A DNA stretch of 64,000 bases from the NCBI GenBank assembly GCA_024707405.1, contig JANPZU010000006.1:53164-117163 (forward strand). The letters run 5' to 3'. The position numbers were made by a program, and so were the translations under genes. Source of the stretch: Luteimonas sp. (GTDB lineage: Bacteria; Pseudomonadota; Gammaproteobacteria; Xanthomonadales; Xanthomonadaceae). A model generated the notes under the pieces. It was not told where the DNA came from and did not search any database. It saw only the letters and a list, made by a program, of their open reading frames with translations. Below, piece by piece: positions 8,458 through 28,637 of the stretch. Each line of letters starts with the position of its first letter. The stretch's first letter is position 1.

Positions 8458-8496
8458 CAGAACGACAGGGGATTTGCTTGGCGTGGGAGGCTTGCG

Positions 8497-10293: not shown

Positions 10294-12362
10294 CCACGGC
10301 TGCCGCCGGCATCTCGCTACAGCGCGACGGCGCGATCCTCGTCGCCCGACTCGACAATCCCCCGGTGAACGCGCTCGCCGCGCCCGTCCGCGCCGCACTG
10401 GCCGATGCGCTGGCGCAAGCGCAGCGCGACCCCGCGATCCGCGCGCTGCTGGTCACCGGATCCGGACGCATGTTCTCCGGCGGCGCCGACATCTCCGAGT
10501 TCGACAAGCCGATGCAGCCGCCGCAATTGCCGGAACTGATCGACCGCTTCGAGGACAGCGACCTGCTCACCGTCGCCGCGATCAACGGCACCGCGATGGG
10601 CGGCGCGCTGGAACTGTCGATGGGCTGCCATTACCGGATCGCGTCGGAGGCGGCGTCGATGGCGTTGCCGGAAGTGAAGATCGGCATCCTCCCCGGCGCC
10701 GGCGGCACGCAGCGCATGCCGCGATTGATCGGCAACGCCGCGGCGCTGGATCTGATCGTCTCCGGCAAGCCGGTGGTGGCGGCCAAGGCGCTGGCGCTCG
10801 GCCTGGTCGACGAATTGGTGCCCGCCGATGGTTTCGAAGGTGCAGCGCTCGACTACGTGCGACGGTTGCTGGAAGCCGGAGGCGCACCGCGCCGTACCCG
10901 CGAGCGCGATGTCGACAATGACGATGCGTTGTTCGGAGCCGCATTGGCGAAACTCCCGGACACGCCGGCCAATTTCGCCGCACGTCGCTGCGTGCTGTCG
11001 GTGCAGGCGGCGTCTCTGCCATTCCGCGAGGGGCAGGCGCGGGAGGCGGCGTTGTTCCTCGAATGTGCGCGCAGCCCGACATCGGCGGCCTTGATCCATG
11101 CGTTCTTCGCCGAACGCCAGGCCGGCAAGGTCGACCGGCTCGATCCGGCCGCGCCGGTACTGCCGATCCGCGACGTCGCCGTGCTCGGCGCGGGCACGAT
11201 GGGCATCGGCATCGCGCTGTCGCTGGCCGACGCCGGGCTCGAGGTGGGCCTGTTCGACAGCGCGGCCGAATCCTTGCAGCGCGCATTGGCGCACATCGAG
11301 AAGCATTACCTGGGATTGGCGGCACGCGGGCGCTTCGACGAGGTCGAGGCACGCGCCCGCATCGCGCGCATCACGGGCGGCGACGACGCGCGGCTGGCGC
11401 GGGTCGACCTGGTGATCGAGGCCGTGTTCGAGGACATGGCGCTGAAGAAGAAGGTCTTCGCGGATCTCGACGCGCGTTGCCGGCCGGATGCGATTCTCGC
11501 CAGCAACACGTCCACATTGGATGTCGACGAAATCGCGTCGGCGACGTCCTCGTCGCATCGCGTGCTGGGCCTGCATTTCTTCAGCCCCGCCAACATCATG
11601 CGGCTGCTGGAGATCGTGCGCGGGCGCCAGACGTCCGACAGCGTGCTGGTCAGCGCGATCACGTTGGCGAAGCGGCTGCACAAGGTCGGCGTCGTCTGCG
11701 GCGTCTGCGACGGCTTCATCGGCAATCGCATGCTGGAAGGTTATGGTCGTGAATCGGGCGTACTGCTGATGGAAGGCGCGTCGCCAGCGCAGATCGATGC
11801 GGCGATCACCGGCTTTGGTTTCGCGATGGGGCCATTCGCGATGTCGGATCTTGCCGGCATCGACGTCGGCTACCGCGTGCGGCAACAGCGTGGCGTCGAT
11901 CCCGCGGACGAGAAAATCTACGCTGTGGGCGATCGGCTGTACGCATTGGGCCGTTATGGCCAGAAGACCGGTGCGGGTTTCTATCGTTACGAGGTGGGCA
12001 ATCGCAAGCCGATCCCCGATCCCGAAGTGGATGCCATCGTCGAGGAGGAGGCGAATCGCCTGGGCATCGTGCGGCGGGCCATTTCCGACGAGGAGATCGT
12101 GGAGCGTTGCGTGCTGCCGTTGATCAACGAAGCGGCCAACATCCTGGATGAAGGCATCGCGATGCGTGCCAGCGACATCGACCTGGTCTGGTTGTACGGT
12201 TACGGCTTCCCGGCATGGCGCGGAGGCCCGATGCACTACGCGAACACCCTTGGCACGGCAGGCGTACTGGAGGCGATCAGTCGGCATGCGCGCGACGACC
12301 GCTACTGGCGACCTGCGCCGTTGCTGGAGCGCCTGGCTGCGGAAGGCAAGCCGTTCGCGTAA
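10290..12362 (+). CDS. bifunctional enoyl-CoA hydratase / 3-hydroxyacyl-CoA dehydrogenase (FadB/FadJ-like)
   Basis: 690 aa. Crotonase N-terminus (FSGGADISEF). NAD-binding GAGTMGIGIA plus a 3HCDH C-terminal domain. The start overlaps the ACAD stop. Confidence 0.9.
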   Translation: MTTAAAGISLQRDGAILVARLDNPPVNALAAPVRAALADALAQAQRDPAIRALLVTGSGRMFSGGADISEFDKPMQPPQLPELIDRFEDSDLLTVAAINGTAMGGALELSMGCHYRIASEAASMALPEVKIGILPGAGGTQRMPRLIGNAAALDLIVSGKPVVAAKALALGLVDELVPADGFEGAALDYVRRLLEAGGAPRRTRERDVDNDDALFGAALAKLPDTPANFAARRCVLSVQAASLPFREGQAREAALFLECARSPTSAALIHAFFAERQAGKVDRLDPAAPVLPIRDVAVLGAGTMGIGIALSLADAGLEVGLFDSAAESLQRALAHIEKHYLGLAARGRFDEVEARARIARITGGDDARLARVDLVIEAVFEDMALKKKVFADLDARCRPDAILASNTSTLDVDEIASATSSSHRVLGLHFFSPANIMRLLEIVRGRQTSDSVLVSAITLAKRLHKVGVVCGVCDGFIGNRMLEGYGRESGVLLMEGASPAQIDAAITGFGFAMGPFAMSDLAGIDVGYRVRQQRGVDPADEKIYAVGDRLYALGRYGQKTGAGFYRYEVGNRKPIPDPEVDAIVEEEANRLGIVRRAISDEEIVERCVLPLINEAANILDEGIAMRASDIDLVWLYGYGFPAWRGGPMHYANTLGTAGVLEAISRHARDDRYWRPAPLLERLAAEGKPFA

Positions 12363-12376
12363 GGCGGCACGACGGC

Positions 12377-13396
12377 ATGGACGAGATGCTTGGGCGGCAA
12401 GGGTTTCCGGCAGCCTTCGGTTTTTCCGACACGTTGCGTGTGCCGGCCAGCGAGACTCTGCATGCCGCGATGCGTCGGCTGCAGCGCCTTCCGGTGCGGC
12501 CGCCACGCAGGCTGGAGGACATTCCGGCGTCGCGCATCGCGTTCGATGCCGCAGTCACCACGGCACTGCATGCGCAGAGTGCCGATGGCGCCGACGCGAT
12601 GCAGGATTCGGCCTGCCGCGTCGAACATTTCGACGGTGTGCCGGTGCTGTGCATCGTGCCGCCGGGTGAACTGCGTGGCGCGGTGATCCACGTCCACGGT
12701 GGGGGCTGGTGCCTTGGCGACCCACGGCCCTTGCAACCGGCGCTCGCGCGCCTTGCGCAGGCGACGTCGACGCTGGTGGCCAGCGTCGATTACCGACTCG
12801 CGCCCGAACACCGGCATCCGTCCGCGCTCGACGATTGCGTGCGTGCAGCGCGGGCACTTGTCGAACGCTTCCGCGAAAAGCACGGGTTCGATGCCCGTCG
12901 CGTCGTGCTCGCTGGCGAGTCGGCTGGCGCGCACCTTGTCTTGATGGCATTGCCGCGATTGCGTGATGCAGGACTGCGCTTCGCAGGCGTGTCGCTCACC
13001 TACGGCTTGTACGATCTTTCCAACACCTTGCCGAGCCGTCGCGGCACCGTGGAGGCGCCTTTGCTCGATGCCGATGCGTGCCGCTTCTACGTCGAGGCCT
13101 ACCTCGGCGAAGGTGCACGCGTGGATGCGTCGTCGTCGCCATGGGCATGGCAGCCGCATGCCTTCGACGACATGCCCCCGGCGCTGTTCTGTGCCGGCAC
13201 GGCCGACCCGCTGCACGACGACAGCGTGGGCATGCACGAGCGCTGGCTGGCCGCATGCAACGATGCCTGGCGCGTCGATTACGAAGGCGCGCCGCATGCA
13301 TTCGACCTGTTGCCGGTGCCCGAGTCGAAGCACCTGGCGGACATGCGCGCGGATTTCGTCCGCTATTGCCTTGCTGATTCCGCAAAGCCCCGGTGA
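12377..13396 (+). CDS. alpha/beta hydrolase, hormone-sensitive-lipase-type esterase
   Basis: First ATG after the fadB-like stop. HVHGGGW oxyanion motif and GESAGAHL nucleophile elbow. Confidence 0.8.
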   Translation: MDEMLGRQGFPAAFGFSDTLRVPASETLHAAMRRLQRLPVRPPRRLEDIPASRIAFDAAVTTALHAQSADGADAMQDSACRVEHFDGVPVLCIVPPGELRGAVIHVHGGGWCLGDPRPLQPALARLAQATSTLVASVDYRLAPEHRHPSALDDCVRAARALVERFREKHGFDARRVVLAGESAGAHLVLMALPRLRDAGLRFAGVSLTYGLYDLSNTLPSRRGTVEAPLLDADACRFYVEAYLGEGARVDASSSPWAWQPHAFDDMPPALFCAGTADPLHDDSVGMHERWLAACNDAWRVDYEGAPHAFDLLPVPESKHLADMRADFVRYCLADSAKPR

Positions 13397-13657: not shown

Positions 13658-14389
13658 TCAAGCCTTCTTTGCCGTGGGTGCCTTCTTGTGTGGCCGCCTG
13701 GCAGTCTTCACTGCCGGTTTGTTGCGCGGGGCCGGGGTTCGGGCCGGCTCCTGCTGTCGCACCGTCCCTTCTTCGCCGTGCAGGGTGAGCAGCGATTCCA
13801 TCAGCTGTTCGTCCGCGCTTGAGCAGACCCCGAGGAGCAGGGCCTCATCGCAGCCTTCCGCGGCGATGTAGGCGTGGCCCATGTTGGAGTCGATGTAAAC
13901 GGATTGTCCGGTTTCCAGGACGATCGGATCGTAGAACTCGGTGTGGACTTCCATGCGCCCTTCGAGCACGTGGATGTATTCTTCGCCCGAATGGCGGACC
14001 AGTTCGCCGAATTCCTCGATACTTTTCGCGCGGACGCGTGTCAGCACGGGGATCATGCGCTTGCGGCGCAGTTCCGGGCACAGGTAGTAGTAGTCGTAGT
14101 TGGGCGTATTGACCCGGATGGACTCCTCGATCCGGCCAATGCTGCGACGCGCGGTGACGGAAGGCTCTGGTGACTCGTCCTGCTCGGCGAACAGTTCCGA
14201 CATGCGCAACTGCAGTCGCTGGCTGAGTTGCAGCAACTTGTCATAGGTGAGCGACAGCCGGTCGTGCTCGACCTTGGAGAGCGTGGAGAGGGGGATGCCG
14301 GAATGTTCGCTCATCTGCTTGAGCGTCCAACCCTTGCGCGCCCGCAGCGAACGCAGCAATCCGCCGATGGTGGGGTGTTGCGATGTCAT
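13658..14389 (-). CDS. XRE-family HTH + cupin transcriptional regulator with basic Lys/Ala/Pro tail
   Basis: HTH_3 (LRARKGWTLKQMSEHSGIPLSTLSKVEH). Cupin (GEEYIHVLEGRMEVH...VYIDSNMGHAY). C-terminal tail NKPAVKTARRPHKKAPTAKKA. Confidence 0.85.
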   Translation of the reverse strand: MTSQHPTIGGLLRSLRARKGWTLKQMSEHSGIPLSTLSKVEHDRLSLTYDKLLQLSQRLQLRMSELFAEQDESPEPSVTARRSIGRIEESIRVNTPNYDYYYLCPELRRKRMIPVLTRVRAKSIEEFGELVRHSGEEYIHVLEGRMEVHTEFYDPIVLETGQSVYIDSNMGHAYIAAEGCDEALLLGVCSSADEQLMESLLTLHGEEGTVRQQEPARTPAPRNKPAVKTARRPHKKAPTAKKA

Positions 14390-14496
14390 CCCGGTGGGGT
14401 CTCCATACTGTCCGCGGTCGCCGAATGCGTGGGGTCATCATCGCCTCCACCGGCAAGGGATGGAAAGGGGCGCGGGCAGGATTCTTTCGTCCCGGG

Positions 14497-14540
14497 TTGA
14501 CAATTCTCTGATTAGGATCATTATCGCCGAATCAGGACAG
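14497..14540 (+). promoter_or_regulatory. near-consensus sigma70 promoter with embedded palindrome (copy 1 of a repeated 28-bp element)
   Basis: TTGACA-17 nt-ATTATC. The 28 nt TTGACAATTCTCTGATTAGGATCATTAT are identical to 20707-20734. Contains TGAT-N4-ATCA (14509-14520). Confidence 0.6.
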
Positions 14541-14608
14541 TTTTGTTGATTGCAGCCGGGCGGCAGCGGGCTGCAGTGGCCACACCGATGATGTCACGGG
14601 AGACTTAG

Positions 14609-16621
14609 ATGCGTGCGATTGCCACCCTCCTGTGCGGAGCCATGCTCTCCGCGATCCTGATCCTGCCCTCGATCGCGCAGGAGGCCTCCGTCCCGCCGAT
14701 CGCCGTGCCGCCCGTGGATGTGCTGGCGGCGCCAGCGACGCCAGCGACGCCCGACGCCGTGCCGGGAATCCCCGGGCTCACGCGCGCCGATGCCGAGGCC
14801 TGGCTCGACGGTTTCCTGCCGTACGCGCTTGCCACCGGCGACATCGCCGGCGCCGTGGTGGTGGTGGTCAAGGACGGCCAGGTGCTGCTGCAGAAGGGCT
14901 ACGGCTACGCCAATCTCGCCGAGCGCACGCCGGTCGATCCCGACGCAACGCTGTTCCGCCCCGGGTCGGTGTCGAAGCTGTTCACCTGGACTGCGGTGAT
15001 GCAATTGGTCGAGCAGGGCAAGCTCGACCTCGATGCCGACGTCAACCAGTACCTCGACTTCGAGATCCCGGCGCGCGAAGGCAAGCCGGCGACACTGCGC
15101 CAGATCCTGACCCACACCGCGGGGTTCGAGGAGCAGATCCGGGGCCTGATCACCGCGCGCGAGGACGAGATCACGCCGTTGGGCGACGCGCTCAAGCACT
15201 GGGTGCCCAACCGCATCCATGTGCCGGGCAGTACGCCCGCCTACTCGAACTACGCCACGGCGTTGGCGGGCTATGTCGTCGAGCGCGTGTCGGGCCAGTC
15301 ATTCGACGACTATCTCGACGCGCACATCTTCGGGCCGCTGGGCATGCGCAACGCCAGCTTCCGCCAGCCATTGCCGCCAGCGCTGCTTGCGAACATGTCC
15401 AACGGCTATGCGCGCGCGTCCGACGGCGAGGCGAAGCCCTACGAATTCATCAGCCTCGCGCCCGCGGGCAGTCTTGCCGCGACCGGTGCCGACATGGCGC
15501 GCTTCATGATCGCGCATTTGCAGGACGGTGCGTACGGCGACGCGCGCATCCTCGGCGAACAGACGGCACGGCAAATGCATTCCACCGGGCAGGCCTCGGT
15601 GGGGCCGCTCAACCGGATGATGCTCGGGTTCTACGAAACCTCGGTGAACGGGCATCGCGCGATCTCGCATGGCGGCGACACGCAGTGGTTCCACAGCGAC
15701 CTGCAGCTGTTCCTCGACGATGGCGTCGGCATCTTCGTGTCGATGAACAGTTCCGGTCGCGATGGTGCAACCGGACACATCCGCTACGCGCTCTCGCGCG
15801 GCTTCGCCGACCGCTACTTCCCCGCTGCGCCGGGTACGCACAAGGGGGTATCGGTCGAAGAGGCGAAGCAACATGCGCAGCAGATCGCCGGTACCTACAC
15901 CAGCAGTCGACGCCCGGACAGCAACATCCTTTCGCTGGCGAACCTGCTCGGCCCGGTGAAGGTGGTGCCCAATGAAGACGGCACGATCAGCGTCACCGCG
16001 GCGCTCGGTGCCGGCGGTGCGCCGAAGAAGTGGCGCGAGATCGAGCCTTATCTGTGGCAGGACACCACCAGCACAGATCGCCTGTCGGCGGACGTGGTGG
16101 ACGGGCAGGTCGTGCGTTTCAGCATGGAGCCCTACGCACCGATCATGGTGTTCCAGCGGCTGTCGGCATGGCAATCGCTGGCCATGCCGCTGCTGATGGC
16201 GAGTTTGCTGGTGCTGCTGCTGACGGTGCTCGCCTGGCCGGTTTCGGCACTGGTGCGTCGCTACTACGGCGCGCCTTACCGGCTCGTCGGAAAGGACGCG
16301 CGCGCGCACAGGCTTGTGCGCATCGGCGCCTTGCTGTCGCTGCTGGCGATGGGCGCTGCGTTGGGCCTGGTGGTGATGATGCTCAGCAAGCTCGACATGA
16401 CCAGTCCGTCCAACGACGGCTTGATCATCGTGTTGCGGTTGTTCGCCACCATCGCGTTGCCGCTTGGAGCGGCGATTGCGGTGTGGAATGCCTGGCACGT
16501 GCTGCGCGGCCGTCGACGCTGGCTGGCGAAGTTGTGGGCCGTGCTCCTGTCGCTGGCGTGTTTGTTCCTGCTGTGGATCGGCATCGCCAACCACGTGATC
16601 GGCTTCGGCGCCCACTACTGA
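14609..16621 (+). CDS. beta-lactamase-fold serine hydrolase (D-aminopeptidase/esterase-like) with C-terminal 4-TM domain
   Basis: Signal peptide. SxxK (SVSK), YxN (YSN) and HGG motifs. About 130 C-terminal residues form hydrophobic helices. Confidence 0.85.
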   Translation: MRAIATLLCGAMLSAILILPSIAQEASVPPIAVPPVDVLAAPATPATPDAVPGIPGLTRADAEAWLDGFLPYALATGDIAGAVVVVVKDGQVLLQKGYGYANLAERTPVDPDATLFRPGSVSKLFTWTAVMQLVEQGKLDLDADVNQYLDFEIPAREGKPATLRQILTHTAGFEEQIRGLITAREDEITPLGDALKHWVPNRIHVPGSTPAYSNYATALAGYVVERVSGQSFDDYLDAHIFGPLGMRNASFRQPLPPALLANMSNGYARASDGEAKPYEFISLAPAGSLAATGADMARFMIAHLQDGAYGDARILGEQTARQMHSTGQASVGPLNRMMLGFYETSVNGHRAISHGGDTQWFHSDLQLFLDDGVGIFVSMNSSGRDGATGHIRYALSRGFADRYFPAAPGTHKGVSVEEAKQHAQQIAGTYTSSRRPDSNILSLANLLGPVKVVPNEDGTISVTAALGAGGAPKKWREIEPYLWQDTTSTDRLSADVVDGQVVRFSMEPYAPIMVFQRLSAWQSLAMPLLMASLLVLLLTVLAWPVSALVRRYYGAPYRLVGKDARAHRLVRIGALLSLLAMGAALGLVVMMLSKLDMTSPSNDGLIIVLRLFATIALPLGAAIAVWNAWHVLRGRRRWLAKLWAVLLSLACLFLLWIGIANHVIGFGAHY

Positions 16622-16680
16622 TCCCCGGATGGCCGGCGCGCGCCGGCCTCCTTTCGTTGCCCGTTGCCTTGGGAGAAGCC

Positions 16681-17682
16681 GTGTCGTTCGTCCTCGAGCT
16701 GCACAACGAGCCGTTGCCGATGTCGGCCCCGTTCCGCATCGCCGGTCACGTATTCGATGCGATGCCCGCGACGGTGGTGACATTGCGTGATGGTGAGCAC
16801 GTGGGTCGTGGCGAAGCGGCCGGCGTGTACTACAACAACGACCATCCGGAAACGATGATCGCCACCCTGGAAGCGCTTCGCCCCCGGATCGAGGCGGGGA
16901 TCGATCGTGACGCGTTGCGCACGCTGCTGCCGGCGGGCGGCGCACGAAACGCGCTCGATTGCGCGCTGTGGGAGCTCGAATCGCAACGCAGCGGCTTGCC
17001 CGTGTGGGCGGTCGCGGGGCTGGAGGGCGTGCGCCCGTTGCTGACCACGTTCACCGTCGGGGCCGATACGCCCGAGGTGATGGCAGAGGGCGCTGCAGCC
17101 TATTGGCAGGCACGCGCATTGAAGCTCAAGCTGACCGGTGAGCCGGATCTCGACAGCGCGCGCATACGCGCCGTGCGTGCGAGGTGTCCGGCGCCATGGC
17201 TCGGTGTCGACGCCAACCAGGGCTACGACACCAAGACATTGCCTGCACTCCTGCCGGTATTGGTGGAGGCGAACGTATCGCTGCTCGAACAGCCCTGTCG
17301 CCGGGGCTGCGAGGATGATCTGGACGGCATCGCGCGCGTGGTGCCGATCGCTGCCGACGAGAGCATCCTGGATCTGGCCGAACTCGAGGCGCGCCATCAT
17401 CGCTTCGATGTGGTCAACATCAAACTCGACAAGTGCGGTGGCCTGACCGAAGGGCTGATGATGGCCAGGCGCGCGCGCGAGCTCGGCAAGCAGGTGATGG
17501 TCGGCAACATGTGCGGCACCAGCCTTGCTGCCGCACCTGCGTTCGTGCTGGGCCAGTTCTGCGACGTGGTGGATCTCGACGGCCCGATCTTCCTCGTCCG
17601 CGATCGCACGCCATCGGTTCGCTACGAGGATGGCTACATCCATTGCGACGGTGAAGTGTGGGGGGCGAAGGCGGTCGCGTGA
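16681..17682 (+). CDS. enolase-superfamily dipeptide epimerase (L-Ala-D/L-Glu epimerase-like)
   Basis: GTG at 16681 follows GGGAGAA. ALKLKLTG, VDANQGY, LEQP, ADES and VNIKLDKCGG motifs of the MLE/dipeptide-epimerase subgroup. Confidence 0.85.
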   Translation: MSFVLELHNEPLPMSAPFRIAGHVFDAMPATVVTLRDGEHVGRGEAAGVYYNNDHPETMIATLEALRPRIEAGIDRDALRTLLPAGGARNALDCALWELESQRSGLPVWAVAGLEGVRPLLTTFTVGADTPEVMAEGAAAYWQARALKLKLTGEPDLDSARIRAVRARCPAPWLGVDANQGYDTKTLPALLPVLVEANVSLLEQPCRRGCEDDLDGIARVVPIAADESILDLAELEARHHRFDVVNIKLDKCGGLTEGLMMARRARELGKQVMVGNMCGTSLAAAPAFVLGQFCDVVDLDGPIFLVRDRTPSVRYEDGYIHCDGEVWGAKAVA

Positions 17683-17687
17683 GCGCC

Positions 17688-18941
17688 ATGGCCGACAAGA
17701 CCTGGTTCGGACAGCCGCGCGGGCTGACCATCCTGTTCCTCACCAACATGTGGGAGATGTTCTCCTACTACGGCATGCGCACGCTGCTGGTCTACTACAT
17801 GACCAAGCAGTTGCTGTTCGCGCAGGAGAAGGCCTCCTTCATCTACGGCGCCTACACCGCGATGGCGTACTTCACCCCGATCCTCGGGGGTGCCATCGCC
17901 GACCGCTGGATCGGCAAGCGCAACGCGGTCATCGTTGGCGGCAGCATCATGGCGTTCGGCCATTTCGTGATGGCATTCGAGCCGATGTTCTACATCGCGC
18001 TGGCGACCATCGCGCTGGGCAACGGGCTGTTCCTGCCCAGCCTGCCGAGCCAGATCAACGATCTCTACGCCGCGGATGACCAGCGCCGTGGCCGTGCCTA
18101 CAACGTGTATTACGTCGGTCTCAACATCGGTGGCTTCCTCGCGCCACTGGTCTGCGGCACGCTTGGCGAGTTGTATGGGTGGCATTACGGGTTTGGCGCC
18201 GCGGGCATCGGCATGTTCCTGGGACTGATGATCTATGTCTGCGGCCGCAGGTACCTGCCGCCGGAAGTCGCCCGCAAGGCGCCGCCAGCCGCGGCGACGC
18301 CTCGGGAAGCGCGTGCCGACCAGCGCAATGTGTGGTGGCTGTTGCTGGGGGTGGGCATTGCGGCGACGATCTTCCGCGGCGCCTACGAACAGGTCGGCAA
18401 CACGCTGCCGTTGTGGATCGATACCGGCGTCGATCGTGCCTGGGGCGCGTTGACGATCCCGATGACCTGGTTCCAGTCGCTCAATCCGCTGCTGGTCATC
18501 ACGCTGACGCCACTGCTGCTGCTGGCGTGGCGCAAGCGCGCCGACGCCGGACGCGAGACCACGCCCGCCATCCGCATGGCGATCGGCGCGTTGATCGTCG
18601 CCGGCGCATACCTGTTGCTGGCCGTCGTGACCATGCTCGCCGGTGAGGCGCGGGTGGGGTGGGAATGGCTGGTCATGTTCTTCGTCGTGCTGACGCTGGG
18701 CGAGTTGTACATCCTGCCGACCGGGCTGGGCCTGTTCGCGAAACTCGCGCCCCCGCGATTGGGTGCGACCACCGTGGCGTCCTGGTTCCTGGCGATCTTC
18801 AGCGGCAGCCTGCTCGCGGGCGTGGTGGGCACGTTGTGGTCGAAGGCCAGCCATGGCGGGTTCTTCCTGTTGTTGTCGGGGCTGGCCGTGCTCGCCGCGC
18901 TGCTGCTGTGGCGGCTCGATCGTCCGATCCGCAGTCTGTGA
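17688..18941 (+). CDS. POT/PTR2-family peptide transporter (short, atypical motif)
   Basis: PTR2 signatures FSYYGMRTLLVYYM and FTPILGGAIADRWIGKR. About 12 hydrophobic helices by eye. ATG is 6 nt after the epimerase stop. Confidence 0.85.
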   Translation: MADKTWFGQPRGLTILFLTNMWEMFSYYGMRTLLVYYMTKQLLFAQEKASFIYGAYTAMAYFTPILGGAIADRWIGKRNAVIVGGSIMAFGHFVMAFEPMFYIALATIALGNGLFLPSLPSQINDLYAADDQRRGRAYNVYYVGLNIGGFLAPLVCGTLGELYGWHYGFGAAGIGMFLGLMIYVCGRRYLPPEVARKAPPAAATPREARADQRNVWWLLLGVGIAATIFRGAYEQVGNTLPLWIDTGVDRAWGALTIPMTWFQSLNPLLVITLTPLLLLAWRKRADAGRETTPAIRMAIGALIVAGAYLLLAVVTMLAGEARVGWEWLVMFFVVLTLGELYILPTGLGLFAKLAPPRLGATTVASWFLAIFSGSLLAGVVGTLWSKASHGGFFLLLSGLAVLAALLLWRLDRPIRSL

Positions 18942-18968
18942 ATCGAACCGCCACACTGGAGAAACGAC

Positions 18969-20693
18969 ATGGCGCGTCCGCCCGTTGCCTTGCTGATGCT
19001 TGCGCTTTGCGCCTGTGGCGTCGCTGCCATGGATGAGCCACGGCAAGCGCACTACGATCTGCTGATCCGCAATGGCGTGGTCTACGACGGCAGCGGTGCG
19101 CCGCCGCAGCGGGTGGATGTGGCGGTGCGCGGCGACCGTATAGCGGCCCTGCTGCCCGCGGGGAGCGATGTGGTTGCCGCTCGCGTGCTGGACGCAAAGG
19201 GACACGCGGTCGCGCCGGGCTTCATCAACGTACTGAGCTGGGCGGTTGAATCGCTGATCGTCGATGGCCGCGGGGTGAGCGATACCAGGCAGGGCGTGAC
19301 GCTGGAGATCTTCGGTGAGGGCTGGTCGATGGGGCCGGTGAACGACCGGATGCGTGTCGATGCGCTGAAGCAGCAGGGCAGCCTGCGCTACGACATCGCC
19401 TGGACATCGTTTGGGGAGTACCTCGAGCACCTCGAAGAACGCGGCGTGACGCCGAACGTGGCGTCGTTCATCGGCGCAACCACGGTGCGCATCCACGAAC
19501 TTGGCGAGGACGATGTCCGGCCCGATGCCGCACAGCTCGCGCGCATGCAGGACATCGTGCGGGCGGCCATGGCCGAAGGCGCGCTGGGCGTCGGCAGCTC
19601 GTTGATCTATCCGCCGGCGACGTTCGCCGACACCGACGAACTCGTTGCGCTGGCGCAGGCAGCGGGAGAGTCCGGTGGCGGCTACGTCTCGCACATGCGC
19701 AGCGAGGCCGACCGCTTCCTCGAAGCCGTCGATGAACTCGTCACCATCGCGCGCGCCACGGGCCAGCGCGCGGAGGCATACCACCTCAAGGCCGCCGGCG
19801 AAAAGAACTGGCCGAAGATGGCGCAGGCAATCGCGAAGATCGAAGCCGCGCGCACGCAGGGGCTGCAAGTCAGCGCCAACATGTACGCCTACACCGCCGG
19901 AGGAACCGGATTGACGGCGGGCTTGCCGCCATGGGTGCAGGCCGGCGGCCATGATGCGATGGTGGCGCGGTTGGCGGATGCCGACGTGCGCGCGCGCGTC
20001 GTTGCCGACATGCGTGATCCCGATGCCGGATGGGAAAACATCCGACTGCTCGCGGGATCGGACGAGCGCGTCGTCCTGATCGACGTCAGGACTCCGGCAT
20101 TGAAGCCGCTGATCGGCAGGACACTGGCTGAGGTCGCGCGCGAGCGCGGGGTCTCGGTCGAGGACGCCATCATCGACCTGATCATCGAGGATGATTCTCG
20201 CGTAGGCGCGGCGTACTTCCTGATGAGCGAGGACAACGTGGAGCTCGGGTTGCGCCAGCCCTGGGTGAGTCTGGGCTCTGACGCGGAATCGTCGGCGCCG
20301 GAGGGCGTGTTCCTGGAGTCGAGCACGCATCCACGCGCCTACGGCAACGCGGCGCGGTTCCTGGGGCACTACGTGCGCGATCGCAAGCTGATGTCCCTGG
20401 AGGAGGGGATCCATCGCATGACCGGCCTGCCGGCTGCGAACTGGAAGCTGGCGGATCGCGGCTGCCTTCGGCCGGGCTGCTTCGCGGACATCGTGGTGTT
20501 CGATCCGACCGCCATTGCCGACCGCGCCACCTACGACAAGCCGCAGCAATACGCCGTGGGTGTTTCCGATGTCTTCGTCAACGGCGTGCAGGTGTTGCGC
20601 GACGGTGAGCACACGGGCGCCTTGCCTGGCAGGGTGGTGCGTGGCCCGGGTTGGACGGGTGGCGCGGCGTCACGCCAGCAGGCTACGCCATGA
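18969..20693 (+). CDS. N-acyl-D-amino-acid deacylase (D-aminoacylase) family amidohydrolase, probable lipoprotein
   Basis: Signal with Cys (LMLALCACG). YDLLIRNGVVYDGSG...VAVRGDRIAAL and APGFINV are typical of the Amidohydro_3 D-aminoacylase family. Confidence 0.85.
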   Translation: MARPPVALLMLALCACGVAAMDEPRQAHYDLLIRNGVVYDGSGAPPQRVDVAVRGDRIAALLPAGSDVVAARVLDAKGHAVAPGFINVLSWAVESLIVDGRGVSDTRQGVTLEIFGEGWSMGPVNDRMRVDALKQQGSLRYDIAWTSFGEYLEHLEERGVTPNVASFIGATTVRIHELGEDDVRPDAAQLARMQDIVRAAMAEGALGVGSSLIYPPATFADTDELVALAQAAGESGGGYVSHMRSEADRFLEAVDELVTIARATGQRAEAYHLKAAGEKNWPKMAQAIAKIEAARTQGLQVSANMYAYTAGGTGLTAGLPPWVQAGGHDAMVARLADADVRARVVADMRDPDAGWENIRLLAGSDERVVLIDVRTPALKPLIGRTLAEVARERGVSVEDAIIDLIIEDDSRVGAAYFLMSEDNVELGLRQPWVSLGSDAESSAPEGVFLESSTHPRAYGNAARFLGHYVRDRKLMSLEEGIHRMTGLPAANWKLADRGCLRPGCFADIVVFDPTAIADRATYDKPQQYAVGVSDVFVNGVQVLRDGEHTGALPGRVVRGPGWTGGAASRQQATP

Positions 20694-20706
20694 TTTTCCA
20701 TGTGTA

Positions 20707-20750
20707 TTGACAATTCTCTGATTAGGATCATTATAACCTGAACAGGACTG
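20707..20750 (+). promoter_or_regulatory. near-consensus sigma70 promoter with embedded palindrome (copy 2)
   Basis: Same 28 nt as 14497-14524 (TTGACA-17 nt-ATTATA). Starts 14 nt after the D-aminoacylase stop and ~70 nt upstream of the receptor ATG. Confidence 0.6.
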
Positions 20751-20806
20751 CGCCATGCCGGGTAGGCGAATCCGCTGCCCCGAGCGCCGATGACCCCGGA
20801 GGCCCG

Positions 20807-23158
20807 ATGAACGTGTTCCAGCCCGCGCAGCCGCGCAATCGCTCCCCGCTTTTCCTCTCGATCGCCGCTGCCTTGGCATTCGTCAGCCTGCCTGCGGTGG
20901 CGCAGGACACGTCGACCGCGGTCGCGCCACCTGAGTCGCAGCGTTCCGACAACGCGGTCTCGCTGGACTCGGTGGTGGTCACGGCCAACAAGCGCGTCGA
21001 GAATGTCCGTGACGTGGGCGCGTCGATCAGCGTGATTGGCGAGCGCCAACTCGAAGGCATCGGTGCGGTTTCGCTGACCGACTATGCCGCGCTCATCCCC
21101 GGCCTGCAGATCCAGAGCGATGGCAGCCCCGGATTGACTCGTGTCTCGCTGCGCGGCATCGCCGCGCTGTCCTCGGGGGCGACGGTGGCGACCTACATCG
21201 ACGAGGTTCCCGTCGGCTCCAGCGGCATCTATCAGGGCGCGAGCTCGTTGATGCTGGATCTGCTGCCGTATGACATCAGCCGGATCGAGGTGCTGCGCGG
21301 GCCGCAAGGCACGTTGTACGGGGCAGGCGCGATCGGCGGCTTGCTCAAGTACGTCACGCGCGTCCCCGACCCGGCGGACGACGAGGTGCGCGTCGGCCTT
21401 GGCCTGCGATCGGTCAGCGGTGGCGAGCAGGACTGGAATGCACGCTTCGGCGCGAGCCTGCCGCTGTCCAACGAGCGCATGGGACTCCGGGTGAGCGCTG
21501 CGCGCAACGGCATTCCGGGGTTCGTCGACAACGCCGTCGATGGCGGCCGCAACATCAACAGTGGCGAACAGATCGGTGCGCGCGCGGCGTTGTCCTGGAA
21601 CGGCGATGCCTTCGACGCCAACCTTTCCGTGCTCCATCAGCGCACACGCAGCGACGACCGCGCCAGCGTGGCGCTTGATCCTGCGACGCAAAGCCCGCTG
21701 GGCGGTGATTTTGAAACCCAGGCATGGCAGCCGCGGCCGTTCTCGAAAGACCTGACCTTGTTCTCGCTCAGCCTGGATTGGGATCTGGGCTGGGGCAACT
21801 TCGTGTCGGCGACCGGCTGGTCGGAGACCAGCACGATGGATCAGATCGATGCGACCGTGCAGTTCGGCGAAGTCGCCAACCTGATGCTGGGCCTGCCGGA
21901 ACCGGGCAGTTCGTTCGTGCGATACGACTTCGACCTCGACAAGATCACGCAGGAGTTCCGGCTGACTTCCAAGGGTGGTGGTGCCTTCGAGTGGATGGTC
22001 GGCGCGTTCTACACCAGGGAAGATGCGCAACAGAGCCAGTTTGCGTGGCTGGGGCAGCGTGACGGCTCACCGCTGCCGCCACCACTGGATACGCAGTTCG
22101 GCACGTTGGCGATCATCGGCCTGCCCAGCACGTACAAGGAGGTAGCGCTGTTCGCCAATGTCTCCTGGCGGTTCGGCGAACGTTTCAAGCTCGACGCAGG
22201 CCTGCGCCAGGCGCGCAACGATCAGTGGTTCAGCCAGAACGTCCCAGAAGGCATCCTTGCGCCGATCGGCGAAGCGCCCGGTGAATCCAGCGAGAACGTG
22301 TTCACCTGGAGCCTGAGCCCGCAGTTCAAGCTCGCGGACGACGTGATGCTGTACGCCCGCATCGCAACCGGCTACCAGCCCGGTGGGCCGAACGTGGCGC
22401 TGCTGGGCATGCCGCCGCAGGTGGACTCGTCGATGCTCGACAGCTACGAGGTCGGCCTCAAATCGCAGTTCGCCGACCGTCGCGTCACCCTCGATGTCTC
22501 CGCGTACCGGATCGACTGGGAGGACATCCAGGTGGCCTCGTCGTTCAACGGCGTCGGTGGACTGGTCAATGGTGGCGAGGCGACCAGCCAGGGCTTCGAG
22601 CTCACGTCGTTGTTCCAGGCCAGCGATGCATGGTTGCTCGGCTTCAATGCGGCCTACACCGATGCGACCATCAAGAATGATTTCACCCCGACCGTGATCC
22701 CGCAGGACGGTTACGACGTGATCCTGTGGACGGGGCTTGCCGGCGATCGCATGCCCTATTCGCCGAAGTGGTCGGCGGCCGCGACCGCCGAGTACGGCTT
22801 CTCCACGTCCAACGGTTTCAACGGGCAAGTGGGCGCGGCCCTGCGCTGGGTAGGCGAGCGACTCAACGACACGACGGAACGGCAGCGCGTGACCGCTCCC
22901 GGCGATCCAGGCACCTTGCTCATCCCCGATGAGGTCGCCGTGCCGCTGTCGCTGGCCAGTTACCGCTCGCTCGACCTGTACGCGGGGGTCGGCAGGAACA
23001 ACTGGGAGTTGCGCGCATACGTCAACAACGTCACCGGCGAGGACGCCTGGTTGTCGATGAGCCCCCTGTCCAGCGCGTTCGGCGGGCCGGCGCAGCAAAT
23101 TTCCGCGGTGCCGATCCAGCCACGCACGTTCGGCATCGAGATCGACTTCCGTTTCTGA
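20807..23158 (+). CDS. TonB-dependent outer-membrane receptor
   Basis: Signal peptide. TonB box/plug (LDSVVVTANKR, VLRGPQGTLYGAGAIGG). C-terminus FGIEIDFRF*. Confidence 0.9.
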   Translation: MNVFQPAQPRNRSPLFLSIAAALAFVSLPAVAQDTSTAVAPPESQRSDNAVSLDSVVVTANKRVENVRDVGASISVIGERQLEGIGAVSLTDYAALIPGLQIQSDGSPGLTRVSLRGIAALSSGATVATYIDEVPVGSSGIYQGASSLMLDLLPYDISRIEVLRGPQGTLYGAGAIGGLLKYVTRVPDPADDEVRVGLGLRSVSGGEQDWNARFGASLPLSNERMGLRVSAARNGIPGFVDNAVDGGRNINSGEQIGARAALSWNGDAFDANLSVLHQRTRSDDRASVALDPATQSPLGGDFETQAWQPRPFSKDLTLFSLSLDWDLGWGNFVSATGWSETSTMDQIDATVQFGEVANLMLGLPEPGSSFVRYDFDLDKITQEFRLTSKGGGAFEWMVGAFYTREDAQQSQFAWLGQRDGSPLPPPLDTQFGTLAIIGLPSTYKEVALFANVSWRFGERFKLDAGLRQARNDQWFSQNVPEGILAPIGEAPGESSENVFTWSLSPQFKLADDVMLYARIATGYQPGGPNVALLGMPPQVDSSMLDSYEVGLKSQFADRRVTLDVSAYRIDWEDIQVASSFNGVGGLVNGGEATSQGFELTSLFQASDAWLLGFNAAYTDATIKNDFTPTVIPQDGYDVILWTGLAGDRMPYSPKWSAAATAEYGFSTSNGFNGQVGAALRWVGERLNDTTERQRVTAPGDPGTLLIPDEVAVPLSLASYRSLDLYAGVGRNNWELRAYVNNVTGEDAWLSMSPLSSAFGGPAQQISAVPIQPRTFGIEIDFRF

Positions 23159-23172
23159 TTCCACTCCGCGTC

Positions 23173-23191
23173 GGGCCGCTGGTGGCGGCCC
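23173..23191 (+). terminator. GC-rich hairpin after the receptor gene (weak U-tract)
   Basis: GGGCCGC-tggtg-GCGGCCC followed by TGTTC. Lies 15 nt after the stop codon. Confidence 0.35.
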
Positions 23192-23215
23192 TGTTCAAGG
23201 ATCCGGACACCCCCC

Positions 23216-24256
23216 ATGCAGACCGTCGTCACGCAGTTGCGCGAGGTCGAAGCGCTTCCGCAGCCGTACCTGCTCTTCCTCGGCGACACCACGCAGCCCG
23301 GCTACGCCAAGACGGCGTTTGGCCTGCGTGACTGGGCGCGGGTGCGTTGCGTCGGTGAGTACGCATGCGAAGGCGCGACGGTCGGCACCGGGCTGCCATT
23401 CATGACGCCGGTGCAGGCGCGGGTTGCGGGCGCGCGCGCGTTGGTCATCGGCGTGGCCAATCCGGGCGGCCATATCCCGGCGACATGGTTGCCGGCGCTG
23501 CTGGATGCCCTGCATGCAGGGCTGGATCTGATCGGCGGGATGCATGCAAGGCTTGGTGCGATCGAATCATTGCGCAATGCCGCGCTGGTGCACGGGCGAC
23601 GGCTGATCGACGTGCGCGAGCCCCCGGCAGGCCTGCCCGTCGCCAGTGGCCGCAAGCGCAGTGGTCGTCGCTTGTTGACGGTGGGCACGGATTGCGCGCT
23701 TGGCAAGAAGTACACCGCGCTCTCGATCGTGCGTGCATTGCGTGAGCGCGACATCGATGCCGACTTCCGTGCCAGCGGACAGACCGGCATCCTGATCGCG
23801 GGTGGGGGCATGCCGATGGATGCCGTGGTCGCGGACTTTGCAGCTGGCGCTGCCGAAGCGTTGTCGCCCGATGCAGGCGCTGAGCACTGGGACGTGATCG
23901 AAGGGCAGGGATCGCTGTCGCATCCGGCGTATGCGGGGGTATCGCTGGCGCTGCTGCATGGCAGCCAGCCGGATGTGATCGTGGTATGCCATGAACACGG
24001 GCGCGAGCGCATGCTGGGCCATGAGCACTATGCGGTGCCCTCGCTCGAAGAGACGATCGACATTGCATTGCGCCTGGGGGCACGCACCAATCCGGCGATC
24101 CGCTGTGCCGGTGTCAGCCTCAATACCGGACAGCTCGAGGAAGGCGCCGCACGTCTGGCAATCGAGGAGGTCGGTGCGCGCCTGGGGTTGCCGGTCGCCG
24201 ATCCGATGCGTGGGGGCGGATCCTTCGAGCGGCTGGTCGATGCCTGCCTGGCTTGA
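23216..24256 (+). CDS. DUF1611-family protein (DgcN-like)
   Basis: 346 aa. VGTDCALGKKYTAL P-loop-like motif and overall DUF1611 layout. This family is commonly paired with dipeptide epimerases. Confidence 0.8.
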   Translation: MQTVVTQLREVEALPQPYLLFLGDTTQPGYAKTAFGLRDWARVRCVGEYACEGATVGTGLPFMTPVQARVAGARALVIGVANPGGHIPATWLPALLDALHAGLDLIGGMHARLGAIESLRNAALVHGRRLIDVREPPAGLPVASGRKRSGRRLLTVGTDCALGKKYTALSIVRALRERDIDADFRASGQTGILIAGGGMPMDAVVADFAAGAAEALSPDAGAEHWDVIEGQGSLSHPAYAGVSLALLHGSQPDVIVVCHEHGRERMLGHEHYAVPSLEETIDIALRLGARTNPAIRCAGVSLNTGQLEEGAARLAIEEVGARLGLPVADPMRGGGSFERLVDACLA

Positions 24257-24316
24257 GCATCGCGACCATGCGCCTTGCACCCGAGACATGAATTGCCAGC
24301 CGGAGGGGGACTGCGA

Positions 24317-25906
24317 ATGACCATGGGTTTCGGAATGCGGCATGTCCCCGCGTTGCTTGTCCTGTTGTTCTCCTGCATCGGTGTCGCCGGCGCGTCGTCC
24401 GGGGATGTCGACGCGCGGATCCTGGAGGCCATGCAATCACGCGACGTGCCTGGCATGGCGATTGCCATCGTCAAGGATGGCGAGGTCATACATGCGAAGG
24501 GATATGGCGTGCGTGCGCTCGGTTCGCAGGCGCGCGTCGATGCCGACACGATCTTCCCCACGGGCTCCACCGGCAAGGCGGTGACCGCGGCGGCGCTCGC
24601 GATCCTCGTTGACGACGGCAAGCTGGGCTGGGACGACAAGGTAATCGACCATCTGCCGGATTTCCGCATGCACGACGCGTGGGTGACGCGCGAGATGACC
24701 GTGCGCGACCTGCTGCTGCATCGCAGTGGGCTGGGCCTGGGGGCGGGAGACTTGCTGTTCATTCCGCGGACCTCGCGCAGTCGCGTCGACATCGTCAAGG
24801 CGTTGCGCCACATCGAACCTGCGACGAGTTTCCGCAGCGGCTATGCCTACGACAACATCCTCTACATCGTCGCCGGCGAACTTGTGACGCAGGTCAGCGG
24901 ACAGCCGTGGGAAACATTCGTGCGCGAACGAGTCTTCGCACCGCTGGGGATGGCGACCGCCGTCAGTGACGAAAACGATCGATTTGCCAACGACAATCGC
25001 GTCCAGCCCCACGCGCGCCTTGATCCGCGCTTGCGTGGCCTGGGCGGGCAGCAGGTGCTGCCTGAGCGCGAAGGGTTGGGACAGGTGGGTGCGCCTGCCG
25101 GTGGACTGTCGTGGAGTGCGAACGACTTCGCGCGGTGGATGCAGGTGCAACTCGCGCTTGGCGTGGTGCCTGGCGCCGGAGGCAGGCGGCTCTGGAGCGA
25201 AGCCAACGCACGCGAAATGTGGACGCCGCAGGTGACGATGCCGATCCGCCCCTTCCCGGCGCCGATCAGCGACATCACCCCGCAGTTCTCCGGTTACGGA
25301 CTGGGATGGGGCGTGCAGGACTATCGTGGCGTCAAGGTCGTCCAGCACGGTGGCGCCGTGTTCGGCGTGCTGGCGTTCGTGGTACTGGTGCCCGAACACA
25401 ATCTCGGTATCTCGCTACAGATCAACAGCGAGGACGTGGAGGTGATGCGCGGCATCGGCTACGAACTGCTCGACCATTACCTCGGTTTCGAGCCGCGTGA
25501 CTGGGTGGCGGCCTTTTCCGAATGGAATCAGGCGCGCCTGGCGGGTGGCCTGGCAGCGCTGGAGGGCATGGGCAAGGCTGCGCGGAGGGCTACGCGCCCG
25601 TCGCTGCCCGCCGCCGGCTACGCGGGCGAGTACGTGGATGCATGGTATGGGCCGATCACCATCACTGCGCAAGGCAGTGGATTGCGCATCGACTTCAGGC
25701 AGACACCGAACATGGTCGGTACTCTCACGCACTGGCAGTACGACACCTTTCGCGCCGACTGGGACGACGCTTCGATCGAGCCTGCGTACGTGACGTTCGC
25801 GCTCGACGCCGAAGGCAAGGTCGCGCGGATCACCATGAAGGCGGTATCACCTGTCGCCGATTTCAGCTACGACTACCACGACCTGTCGTTCGAGCCCGCT
25901 GGGTAG
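24317..25906 (+). CDS. secreted beta-lactamase-fold serine hydrolase with C-terminal beta-domain
   Basis: GGAGG-N9-ATG at 24317. Signal peptide. SxxK (STGK), YxN (YDN) and HGG motifs. Confidence 0.85.
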   Translation: MTMGFGMRHVPALLVLLFSCIGVAGASSGDVDARILEAMQSRDVPGMAIAIVKDGEVIHAKGYGVRALGSQARVDADTIFPTGSTGKAVTAAALAILVDDGKLGWDDKVIDHLPDFRMHDAWVTREMTVRDLLLHRSGLGLGAGDLLFIPRTSRSRVDIVKALRHIEPATSFRSGYAYDNILYIVAGELVTQVSGQPWETFVRERVFAPLGMATAVSDENDRFANDNRVQPHARLDPRLRGLGGQQVLPEREGLGQVGAPAGGLSWSANDFARWMQVQLALGVVPGAGGRRLWSEANAREMWTPQVTMPIRPFPAPISDITPQFSGYGLGWGVQDYRGVKVVQHGGAVFGVLAFVVLVPEHNLGISLQINSEDVEVMRGIGYELLDHYLGFEPRDWVAAFSEWNQARLAGGLAALEGMGKAARRATRPSLPAAGYAGEYVDAWYGPITITAQGSGLRIDFRQTPNMVGTLTHWQYDTFRADWDDASIEPAYVTFALDAEGKVARITMKAVSPVADFSYDYHDLSFEPAG

Positions 25907-26164
25907 CAGCGATATTCCGGCGTCGAGGATGATCCTTTAGTCCGACGGACGTGCCCGTGGTTGGCGTGAAGAATGGATGCGCGAACGATGGCATCAAGGT
26001 CGCGCATGACCAGGGTCTGGCGAATACCCGGGTCAATCCGAGCAGGATTCGCAACGCATCTCGGAGTTGGTTACGGATAGCAGGATCCGAGGCGGCGTTT
26101 CCTGTTCGTCTCGGGTAATGCCGAATGACTGGGCATGCTGATCGATACATGCCCGGGGTTCGTC

Positions 26165-26885
26165 ATGAACTCGATCGTTCCGTTCCAGAAGCCCAATCAC
26201 CGCCAGGGACCTACCCTGGCCAAGTTCACGTGTGACTGGTTCGACCAGGCGTCGCTTGGCTGGCGGGACAGCACCGTCCGCCGGGTCAAGTCGATCATCG
26301 ACATGCATCTGCTTCCGGTGCTCGAGGCGTTTCCGGAATCGGGCATGACGCGTCGGGACGTGATGACGCTGCGCGCAGATCTCATGCGAGGGAGAGGGCC
26401 GTCAGGCAAGCCATGCAGCAACATCCGCACCAACAGCATTGTGCAGGTGCTCAACCAGATGTTGGTCGAGCGGCAACGGCAACTGGATATTGCCAACCCA
26501 TGCGCAGGCATTCGATCAATTCCGACACGCAAACCGGACGTCCATCCATTCACGCTGCCCGAACTCAGGCTTCTCGTCGAGGTGGCACCAGAGCGCCTCA
26601 AGCCCTACCTGTGGGTGCGCGGCATCCTTGGCCTGCGCTCAGGCGAGGCGAATGGATTGATGTGGGACTGCGTTGATTTTGATGCTGGAACCATCGAGAT
26701 CAAGCGTTCGCGGTCGACGGTACGGATCGCCTGCCGAAGAACCAGTACTCGGAGCGCATCATCCGGCTGACGCCATCGGTGCTCGGTTCGATGAAGCGAG
26801 CTTGGGAGTTCACGGGAAGCGAAGGCGACTACGTCTTCAAAAGCAAGCGTGGGAAGCCGCTCGACATCCAGAATTTCGCTCGGCG
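26165..26885 (+). pseudogene. tyrosine recombinase/phage integrase remnant (frameshifted, truncated, IS-interrupted)
   Basis: SAM-like N-domain and GLRSGEANGL (first catalytic Arg). Frame changes near 26710 (IEIKRSRS / VDGTDRLPKNQYSERIIRL). The HxxR and Tyr region is absent. Cut by the IS at 26886. Confidence 0.75.
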
Positions 26886-26952
26886 TGACTGGGGTTCACC
26901 CCCGTTTTCACGGACACTTACGAGAAGGCCGATCGAGGCCTGAGGAGTGTTC

Positions 26953-27240
26953 ATGTCGAAGCGAAGGAAGTTCAGCGCCGAGTTCAAGCGCGGTGCTATT
27001 GAGCAGGCCAGCCAGCCGGGTGTGAGCTGTGCCCAAGTGGCCCGGGAGTTGGGGATCCGCGACACCCTGTTGACCCGCTGGAAGCGGGAAGCCCAGAGCC
27101 AGGGGGTGGTGGCTCTGGGCGGCAGCGGGACGCCCCGGGACGAAGAGCTGGCCCGCCTCAAGCGCGAGCTGGCCCGGGTGAGGAAGGAACGGGATTTTTT
27201 GCGAGAAGCGGCGACGTTCTTTGCCAAGGGATCATCCTGA
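26953..27240 (+). CDS. IS3-family transposase OrfA (HTH)
   Basis: [19 protein letters not shown]...[12 protein letters not shown] plus a leucine-zipper-like C-terminus. Confidence 0.85.
27195..27201 (+). promoter_or_regulatory. candidate -1 programmed frameshift slippery site (T TTT TTG)
   Basis: A T6G run near the end of orfA. The -1 frame runs straight into the orfB frame (27249 frame). Confidence 0.45.
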
Positions 27241-27248
27241 GGTATCAG

Positions 27249-28573: not shown

Positions 28574-28599
28574 GAAAAACCCCACGTAATCGCGGGGTT
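28574..28599 (-). terminator. intrinsic terminator downstream of tRNA-Met
   Basis: Minus strand reads AACCCCGCG-ATTA-CGTGGGGTT followed by TTT, ~39 nt after the tRNA 3' end. Confidence 0.55.
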
Positions 28600-28637
28600 A
28601 CGGTGCCGAGGATAAATCCGTCAGGCATGGACAATGG

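Follow-up and report, generated by a model that had tools for sequence, protein, structure and literature searches.

Which substrate could call, within a single run of eight genes, for an outer-membrane receptor, two beta-lactamase-fold hydrolases, a peptide permease and two homologues of D-glutamate enzymes? The question is raised by positions 13658–25906 of a 64,000-nucleotide (nt) stretch of Luteimonas sp. DNA (contig JANPZU010000006.1), referred to here as the window, which has a G+C content of ~66%; the closest relatives of its genes place it in Lysobacterales, near Luteimonas and Pseudoxanthomonas. To judge from the sequence, these genes probably form a repressor-controlled regulon of two operons for the uptake and catabolism of peptides containing D-amino acids, with the DgcN/DgcA D-glutamate route as its last stage. 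All eight genes proposed in the original prediction are present and intact in profile searches (Pfam and NCBIfam), and their families, signal peptides, lipobox and transmembrane (TM) segments agree with the compartments, from outer membrane to cytoplasm, that had been assigned to them. The features are as follows (aa, amino acids).

13658–14389, − strand: regulator with XRE helix-turn-helix (HTH) and cupin domains (Pfam HTH_31/HTH_3 and Cupin_2), 243 aa, basic C-terminal tail
14497–14538, + strand: promoter/operator copy 1, predicted, 5′ of hydrolase 1; first 28 nt identical to 20707–20734
14520–14549, − strand: predicted divergent regulator promoter, overlapping operator copy 1; a match to consensus only
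14609–16621, + strand: hydrolase 1, S12 serine hydrolase, 670 aa (PF00144, 214 bits)
16631–16648, + strand: GC-rich hairpin and adjoining 3′ T-rich tract, between the hydrolase 1 and racemase genes; terminator-like match
16681–17682, + strand: DgcA-like racemase/epimerase of the enolase superfamily (MLE subgroup), 333 aa, cytoplasmic
17688–18941, + strand: POT/PTR2 peptide permease, 417 aa (short), inner membrane (PF00854, 160 bits)
18969–20693, + strand: D-aminoacylase-family amidohydrolase with a lipoprotein signal and an atypical metal site
20707–20748, + strand: promoter/operator copy 2, predicted, 5′ of the receptor gene
20807–23158, + strand: TonB-dependent outer-membrane receptor, 783 aa, plug and barrel domains
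23216–24256, + strand: DUF1611 protein, DgcN-like, cytoplasmic, sole copy in the genome
24317–25906, + strand: hydrolase 2, exported S12 hydrolase with C-terminal DUF3471, 529 aa (PF00144, 208 bits; PF11954, 96 bits)
28638–28714, − strand: tRNA-Met, 3′ of the cluster

The real start of the racemase gene is GTG 16681, preceded by a GGAGA ribosome-binding site, and the start of hydrolase 2 is fixed at ATG 24317.

Recurrence of the gene set across genomes

At least 574 relatives of the DUF1611 protein were found in species genomes, and the best 80 of them, 65–82% identical and belonging to Lysobacterales, Steroidobacterales, Woeseiaceae, Sphingomonadales and Chthoniobacterales, were mapped with the proteins of the window; the 53 loci with complete 10-kb flanks are referred to here as full loci. 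Around the DUF1611 orthologue, the gene set recurs in most of the best 80 loci, across three phyla. This recurrence is beyond chance, and the gene set is a real unit. The racemase is encoded in 50 of the 53 full loci, hydrolase 1 in 48, the regulator and the receptor in 46 each and hydrolase 2 in 43. The phylogenetic co-occurrence of all eight genes, suggested earlier as a check, is thus strongly positive for the regulator, hydrolases, racemase, receptor and DgcN (43–50 of 53), whereas the POT permease (29 of 53) and the window-type amidohydrolase (13 of 53) are accessory parts of the wider cluster. Gene order varies by lineage, with at least five arrangements, and the set is kept in Gammaproteobacteria, Alphaproteobacteria and Verrucomicrobia.

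Usually located between the dgcN-like and hydrolase 2 genes of related loci is a gene for an unannotated polytopic membrane protein of ~370 aa (L020:11058–12182 and 57 other loci), for which Pfam, NCBIfam and PDB sequence searches gave no match. It is present in 40 of the 53 full loci and partly alternates with the POT permease, one or both being encoded in 48 of them; it is absent from the genome of the window. Between the operator and the receptor gene, many loci carry a gene for an M19 membrane dipeptidase (L027:492–1775, L039:8660–9973 and 22 others). The M19 dipeptidase occurs in 13 full loci and a window-type or type-2 amidohydrolase in 15, with co-occurrence in none of the 53; as these genomes are related to one another, the pattern is no more than suggestive of mutual exclusion. 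An M19 gene of the present genome lies elsewhere (G000:C7:532419–533504).

In a separate, independent set of 201 genomes from the order, 40 encode a DgcN-like protein and 23 a hydrolase-1-like protein (E ≤ 1e-80). DgcN is encoded in 19 of these 23 as well, with ~1–8 kb between the two genes in at least 11 of the 19. Besides the genome of the window, the cluster was found in 1 of 25 other sampled genomes of the same family, and its distribution is therefore patchy.

A divergent class of DgcN (only 48–54% identical), found in other families, is also accompanied by genes for a racemase, a receptor, an amidohydrolase and proteins like hydrolases 1 and 2, laid out as two divergent operons. In the loci of this class from other families of the order (L107–L112), hydrolase 2 and the receptor are encoded on one strand and hydrolase 1, the racemase and DgcN, in that order, on the other; the 28-nt operator described below is absent from these loci. 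In a minimal version at L114:8547–12089, the gene directly 5′ of dgcN-like and dgcA-like genes encodes an exported D-aminoacylase whose HxH motif is intact.

A repeated promoter element and its predicted regulator

A 42-nt element occurs twice, at 14497 and 20707, with both copies identical across the first 28 nt. Each copy has the form TTGACA-16-CATTAT, a predicted sigma-70-like promoter, and the two are the only such sites on the + strand within 13 kb; ATYAGGA words are repeated in the element, flanking the −10 hexamer on both sides. Most related loci have the element 5′ of the gene for hydrolase 1, the receptor or both, at 19–28 of 28 matching positions, in several orders and phyla, including Steroidobacterales, Sphingomonadales and Chthoniobacterales. 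The two copies therefore point to two transcription units under one control element. Predicted unit 1 comprises hydrolase 1, racemase, POT permease and amidohydrolase, and predicted unit 2 comprises receptor, DUF1611 protein and hydrolase 2, with the regulator gene placed divergently.

The regulator, a weak match to PuuR in Pfam and NCBIfam, has an orthologue divergent from the cluster in 46 of the 53 full loci. Its candidate promoter reads TCAACA-18-GATAAT (9 of 12 consensus positions). The XRE–cupin protein is presumed to be the repressor of both units: it would sit on the repeated operator at both promoters and be released by a small-molecule product. Together with so well-defined an operator, it could be turned into a reporter with which to look for the natural inducer. 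Inside the first unit, the 18-nt hairpin at 16631–16648 is perfect, GC-rich and followed by a T-rich tail, and is possibly an attenuator or an RNA-stability element.

Predicted route from the receptor to the cytoplasm

At the cytoplasmic end of the proposed route are the DUF1611 protein and the racemase. DgcN is a D-glutamate N-acetyltransferase (EC 2.3.1.312) and DgcA an N-acetyl-D-glutamate racemase (EC 5.1.1.25)(PMC11747546); PDB 7XRJ is the structure of the D-glutamate acetyltransferase described by Yu et al. 2023 (ISME J 17:537). That DUF1611 proteins and ‘dipeptide epimerases’ had been described together as DgcN and DgcA was suggested in the original prediction, and is borne out by the NCBIfam names, by these EC numbers and by the match of the DUF1611 protein to 7XRJ (318 bits, E of 8e-94, nearly full length). 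Composed of domains PF17396 and PF07755, the protein is the single match in the whole genome in a profile search, and aligns with positions 1–324 of the 326 of the DgcN model NF041892 at 429.1 bits. Its P-loop, GTDCALGKKY, is kept in 80 of 81 DUF1611 sequences. The racemase scores 340.8 bits with the DgcA model NF042940, still its top-scoring family, and 209.6 bits with the L-Ala-D/L-Glu epimerase model NF011708 (cut-off 343, missed); among solved structures it matches PDB 4GFI at 200 bits and YcjG (1JPD) at 179 bits. The assignment of both proteins to DgcN and DgcA thus holds as best matches, and not at the level of the equivalog cut-offs (480 and 400).

The racemase motifs KLKL, VDAN, EQP, ADES and KLDK, which supply the KxK and second Lys acid/base residues and the D/E/D metal ligands, are kept in 66 orthologues. 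In L-Ala-D/L-Glu epimerases, as in YkfB, the 20s loop supplies the Arg to which the Glu side chain binds, and in dipeptide epimerases a DLD motif binds the ammonium group of the dipeptide. The DLDGP of the racemase aligns with the DLDGP of YcjG and 4GFI and is kept in 64 of the 66 orthologues, whereas its 20s loop reads A-G-H-V-F where these two have (A/S)-R-G-x-R, with a conserved Arg two residues earlier (PFRI). D-Glu, or a related acidic D-residue, would be acetylated by the DgcN-like enzyme, and the N-acetyl-D form would be converted by the DgcA-like racemase to N-acetyl-L-Glu, which joins ordinary metabolism.

The proposed route begins at the TonB-dependent receptor, which would import oligopeptides too large for porins. 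The receptor has the PF07715 plug, the PF00593 barrel, a signal peptide and the C-terminal Phe of its class, and has no equivalog-level match to any named receptor in NCBIfam. Its identity as a siderophore receptor was considered and rejected, as the match is generic (131 bits) and below the threshold of 224.

Both hydrolases belong to peptidase family S12, having a PF00144 domain and the SxxK, YxN and (H/K)xG motifs, and both have a visible signal peptide. The motifs are SVSK, YSN and HGG in hydrolase 1, kept in 64 orthologues, and STGK, YDN and HGG in hydrolase 2, kept in 55. As HLG and HAG are also seen among the orthologues, the third motif is better written HxG. Residues S120, K123, Y212, N214, H354 and G356 of hydrolase 1 are invariant in 29 orthologues. 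Hydrolase 1 is composed of the signal peptide, the S12 catalytic domain, a beta-rich domain (approximately residues 416–517) and four C-terminal TM helices (524–542, 574–592, 605–623 and 642–660), with charged loops compatible with a periplasmic catalytic domain; its AlphaFold model has a pLDDT of 87 and a pTM of 0.84. The motifs and the export signals expected of the two enzymes are thus found in both, but hydrolase 1 is predicted, from its sequence and model, to be anchored in the inner membrane by its four C-terminal helices and is not a simple exported enzyme. At the periplasmic stage of the route, this anchored enzyme and the soluble S12/DUF3471 hydrolase would cut the imported peptide at D-residues.

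The best fold matches of hydrolase 1 are Pab87, a penicillin-binding-protein homologue, the DL-peptidase Lip3, IS11 and SurE, with the peptide cyclase Ulm16 also matched; the best PDB sequence matches of hydrolase 2 are IS11 and Pab87. Alkaline D-peptidase, the R61 DD-peptidase, ClbP and D-amino acid amidase are also among the sequences and folds closest to the hydrolases, and identity to all solved relatives is only ~20–25%. A role in beta-lactam resistance was rejected: the two enzymes score 82 and 75 bits with the class C beta-lactamase model (cut-off 415), and the third motif is HGG, not KTG. The beta-lactamase fold, SxxK and YxN are shared with the S12 peptidases acting on D-residues (Lip3 and Lip7, BogQ, TriF, ClbP, the D-aminopeptidase DAP, alkaline D-peptidase and R61). 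The HxG form of the third motif is that of R61 and SurE, Lip3 and Lip7 having KGG instead. The beta-rich domain of hydrolase 1 is likewise seen in Pab87, IS11 and Lip3, to which hydrolase 1 adds its four C-terminal helices.

From the resulting D-residue fragments (for example, X-D-Glu), an acyl or aminoacyl group would be removed by the lipoprotein amidohydrolase. This protein aligns over its full length with the D-aminoacylase of A. faecalis DA1 (1M7J, 241 bits) and with the N-acyl-D-glutamate deacylase of Bordetella (3GIP, Bb3285, 227 bits), and membership of a family that includes an N-acyl-D-Glu deacylase is consistent with the D-peptide regulon. The predicted family and lipoprotein signal are upheld, the lipobox L-C-A-C aligning with LAAC and LAGC of the orthologues; the usual metal ligands are not, as L-S-W replaces HxH and the bridging Cys is lost. 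Retained in all three cluster-linked subtypes are a Glu (FGEGW), two His (SHMRSE and YHLK) and an Asp (GSDA), the two His and the catalytic Asp being those of 1M7J and 3GIP, whereas the conserved Glu may occupy the position of the Cys. A further difference from those two enzymes is the lipoprotein signal, which implies export; export signals are present in all three subtypes. Because the subtypes share this metal-site pattern, the amidohydrolase is a conserved variant, not a decayed gene. Its site may resemble the one-metal site of E. coli NagA, which is a plausible model.

Transfer of the small fragments into the cytoplasm would fall to the POT permease, which scores 283 bits with TIGR00924 (cut-off 130) and is also above the cut-off of PF00854. 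It reads T-N-M-W-E-M-F-S-Y-Y-G at the position of the family motif, ExxERFxYYG. The Arg of its ExxER motif is absent, and is replaced in every POT orthologue of the clusters that covers the motif.

Candidate substrates, related systems and setting

In soil and water, the D-amino acids of peptidoglycan debris and of natural peptide products make up a large store of organic carbon and nitrogen that is broken down slowly. How free D-glutamate is used is explained by the DgcN/DgcA route, but not how peptides with D-residues are captured and dismantled; a receptor–peptidase–permease set wired to that route would provide testable genes for the capture step. Peptidoglycan-derived peptides from dead or lysed bacteria would be the most likely substrate. 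No other source of D-Glu is as abundant, and such peptides would suit the group of the host, which includes species that lyse other microbes. A wider proposition, which we regard as evenly balanced, is that the cluster is a dedicated locus for D-peptide utilization, a TonB-dependent nutrient system that is conserved in three phyla, across hundreds of species from soil and water. In this system, a membrane-anchored S12 peptidase would be the regular partner feeding DgcN/DgcA under one conserved XRE–cupin operator. The D-peptides would then probably come from bacterial necromass or peptide antibiotics, and DgcN/DgcA would be mainly the end of a peptide-foraging route, not a free D-glutamate pathway.

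Several observations weigh against a D-peptide regulon that ends in D-glutamate. The DgcN-like and DgcA-like scores are both under their equivalog cut-offs (429 versus 480 and 341 versus 400), and with only about half of its residues identical to those of 7XRJ, the DUF1611 protein may handle a different amino acid. The cluster contains no muramidase, amidase, D-Ala or diaminopimelate enzyme, and therefore has no specific tie to peptidoglycan. S12 enzymes also include esterases, and the amidohydrolase, which is without three of the canonical metal ligands, might be inactive or have other chemistry. Finally, the absence of the ~370-aa membrane protein from this POT-only variant leaves free D-Glu with no obvious way to DgcN through a di- and tripeptide permease.

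A less likely but serious alternative, in view of the structural neighbours of the hydrolases, is that the target of this machinery would be D-residue-rich non-ribosomal peptides and lipopeptides that competitors or cyanobacteria produce, with detoxification and/or feeding as the purpose. Candidate targets of this kind would be surfactant lipopeptides and bacitracin-like or microcystin-like compounds, with the anchored S12 enzyme cutting D–L bonds at the membrane surface. Lip3 and Lip7 cleave D–L bonds in lipopeptides, as shown for Lip3; SurE is a peptide cyclase whose structure was solved with bound D-Leu, and BogQ, TriF and ClbP are S12 enzymes specific for D-residues in non-ribosomal products. 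The tie to D-residues given by Lip3, SurE and Pab87, the nearest solved relatives of hydrolase 1, also favours the D-peptide regulon itself. The structural matches of hydrolase 1 to the DL-peptidase Lip3 and the cyclases SurE and Ulm16 fit such a target, as does the suitability of TonB receptors for substrates of ~1 kDa; however, these matches are at only ~20% identity, the route always ends, in the cytoplasm, in a pathway of the D-Glu type although many lipopeptides have no D-Glu, and a ubiquitous substrate would better explain conservation so wide among soil and water bacteria.

The nearest precedent for such a target is the mlrCADB cluster of Sphingomonadaceae, in which a periplasmic S12 enzyme (MlrB, 59 kDa) is paired with a 12-helix PTR2 transporter (MlrD, 45 kDa) and acts on a peptide containing D-Glu; the sizes are near those of hydrolase 2 and the POT permease, a likeness by description only. 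No MlrA (CPBP) or MlrC (M81) domain was found by Pfam among the eight genes, which counts against the non-ribosomal target, and the mlr cluster in turn is without a TonB receptor and without DgcN/DgcA. Among 301 Sphingomonadaceae genomes searched for MlrC, 11 were positive, with no canonical mlr cluster in the regions fetched, and a large protein search with the POT permease and hydrolase 2 gave, among the matches listed, only close orthologues with generic names.

In two Sphingomonadaceae loci, L097 and L098, M81 (MlrC-like) genes adjoin a TonB receptor (26% and 36% identical to that of the window, respectively) and a regulator 43–45% identical to the XRE–cupin protein. L097 has a full-length hydrolase-1-like gene (36%) and L098 a weak S12 match only. 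These loci may represent a sister family of peptide-uptake loci.

In E. coli, peptidoglycan peptides are recycled by AmpG/Mpp-Opp, LdcA, MpaA and YcjG. A YcjG-like epimerase and a peptide importer are common to both systems, and D-Glu needs special handling in each; the present cluster differs in its TonB receptor, in having S12 hydrolases in place of LdcA and MpaA, in DgcN and in its patchy distribution. Recycling of the cell's own peptidoglycan turnover, with an L-Ala-D/L-Glu epimerase acting on dipeptides imported by POT, would account for the 179-bit match of the epimerase to YcjG, for its DLD motif and for the presence of a permease whose family transports di- and tripeptides. It is nevertheless improbable, because a TonB receptor in 46 of the 53 full loci points to an outside source and a housekeeping function would not be expected of a cluster found in 1 of 25 other family genomes; the epimerase, moreover, scores higher with the DgcA model than with that of L-Ala-D/L-Glu epimerase and is without the 20s-loop R-G-x-R pattern of YcjG and 4GFI. 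A mere set of co-regulated neighbours acting on something other than a D-peptide (an all-L peptide, an ester or a xenobiotic amide, on which promiscuous S12 esterases and the amidohydrolase would act) is very unlikely too, for although the S12 relatives include the esterases IS11 and EstB and the amidohydrolase metal site is unusual, the constant partners are a racemase and a D-Glu acetyltransferase homologue, for which it is hard to see a role unless a D-amino acid is present.

The D-peptide regulon that we favour shares with the DgcN–DgcA pathway (Yu et al. 2023) a DUF1611 acetyltransferase homologue and an enolase-superfamily racemase homologue, as the best NCBIfam matches. Here, in contrast, the dgcN-like and dgcA-like genes are 5.5 kb apart and in different predicted transcription units, and are embedded with the TonB receptor, two S12 hydrolases, the permease, the exported amidohydrolase and the XRE–cupin regulator. 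Literature searches for DUF1611, for TonB with dipeptide epimerase and peptidoglycan, and for D-glutamate N-acetyltransferase found no searchable paper describing this combination, in keeping with the earlier view that it is not a characterized operon. Its parts belong to known families and its cytoplasmic end to a known pathway; the coupling of these to a TonB receptor, an anchored S12 enzyme, an S12/DUF3471 enzyme and an XRE–cupin operator is apparently undescribed in searchable papers.

The genes 5′ of the cluster (8425–13396) encode an acyl-CoA dehydrogenase, a FadB-type enoyl-CoA hydratase/3-hydroxyacyl-CoA dehydrogenase and an alpha/beta hydrolase, which are beta-oxidation genes unrelated to it. 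In a comparison of flank synteny, the flanking genes of the window were not found in the flanks of related loci, and the flanks of those loci map to scattered places in the present genome; the position of the cluster is therefore not conserved. On its 3′ side (26135–28714) are a decayed integrase fragment (a weak Phage_int_SAM_3 match), an IS3-type HTH_21/rve fragment and the tRNA-Met gene, a setting that makes an island origin or a rearrangement possible for the cluster.

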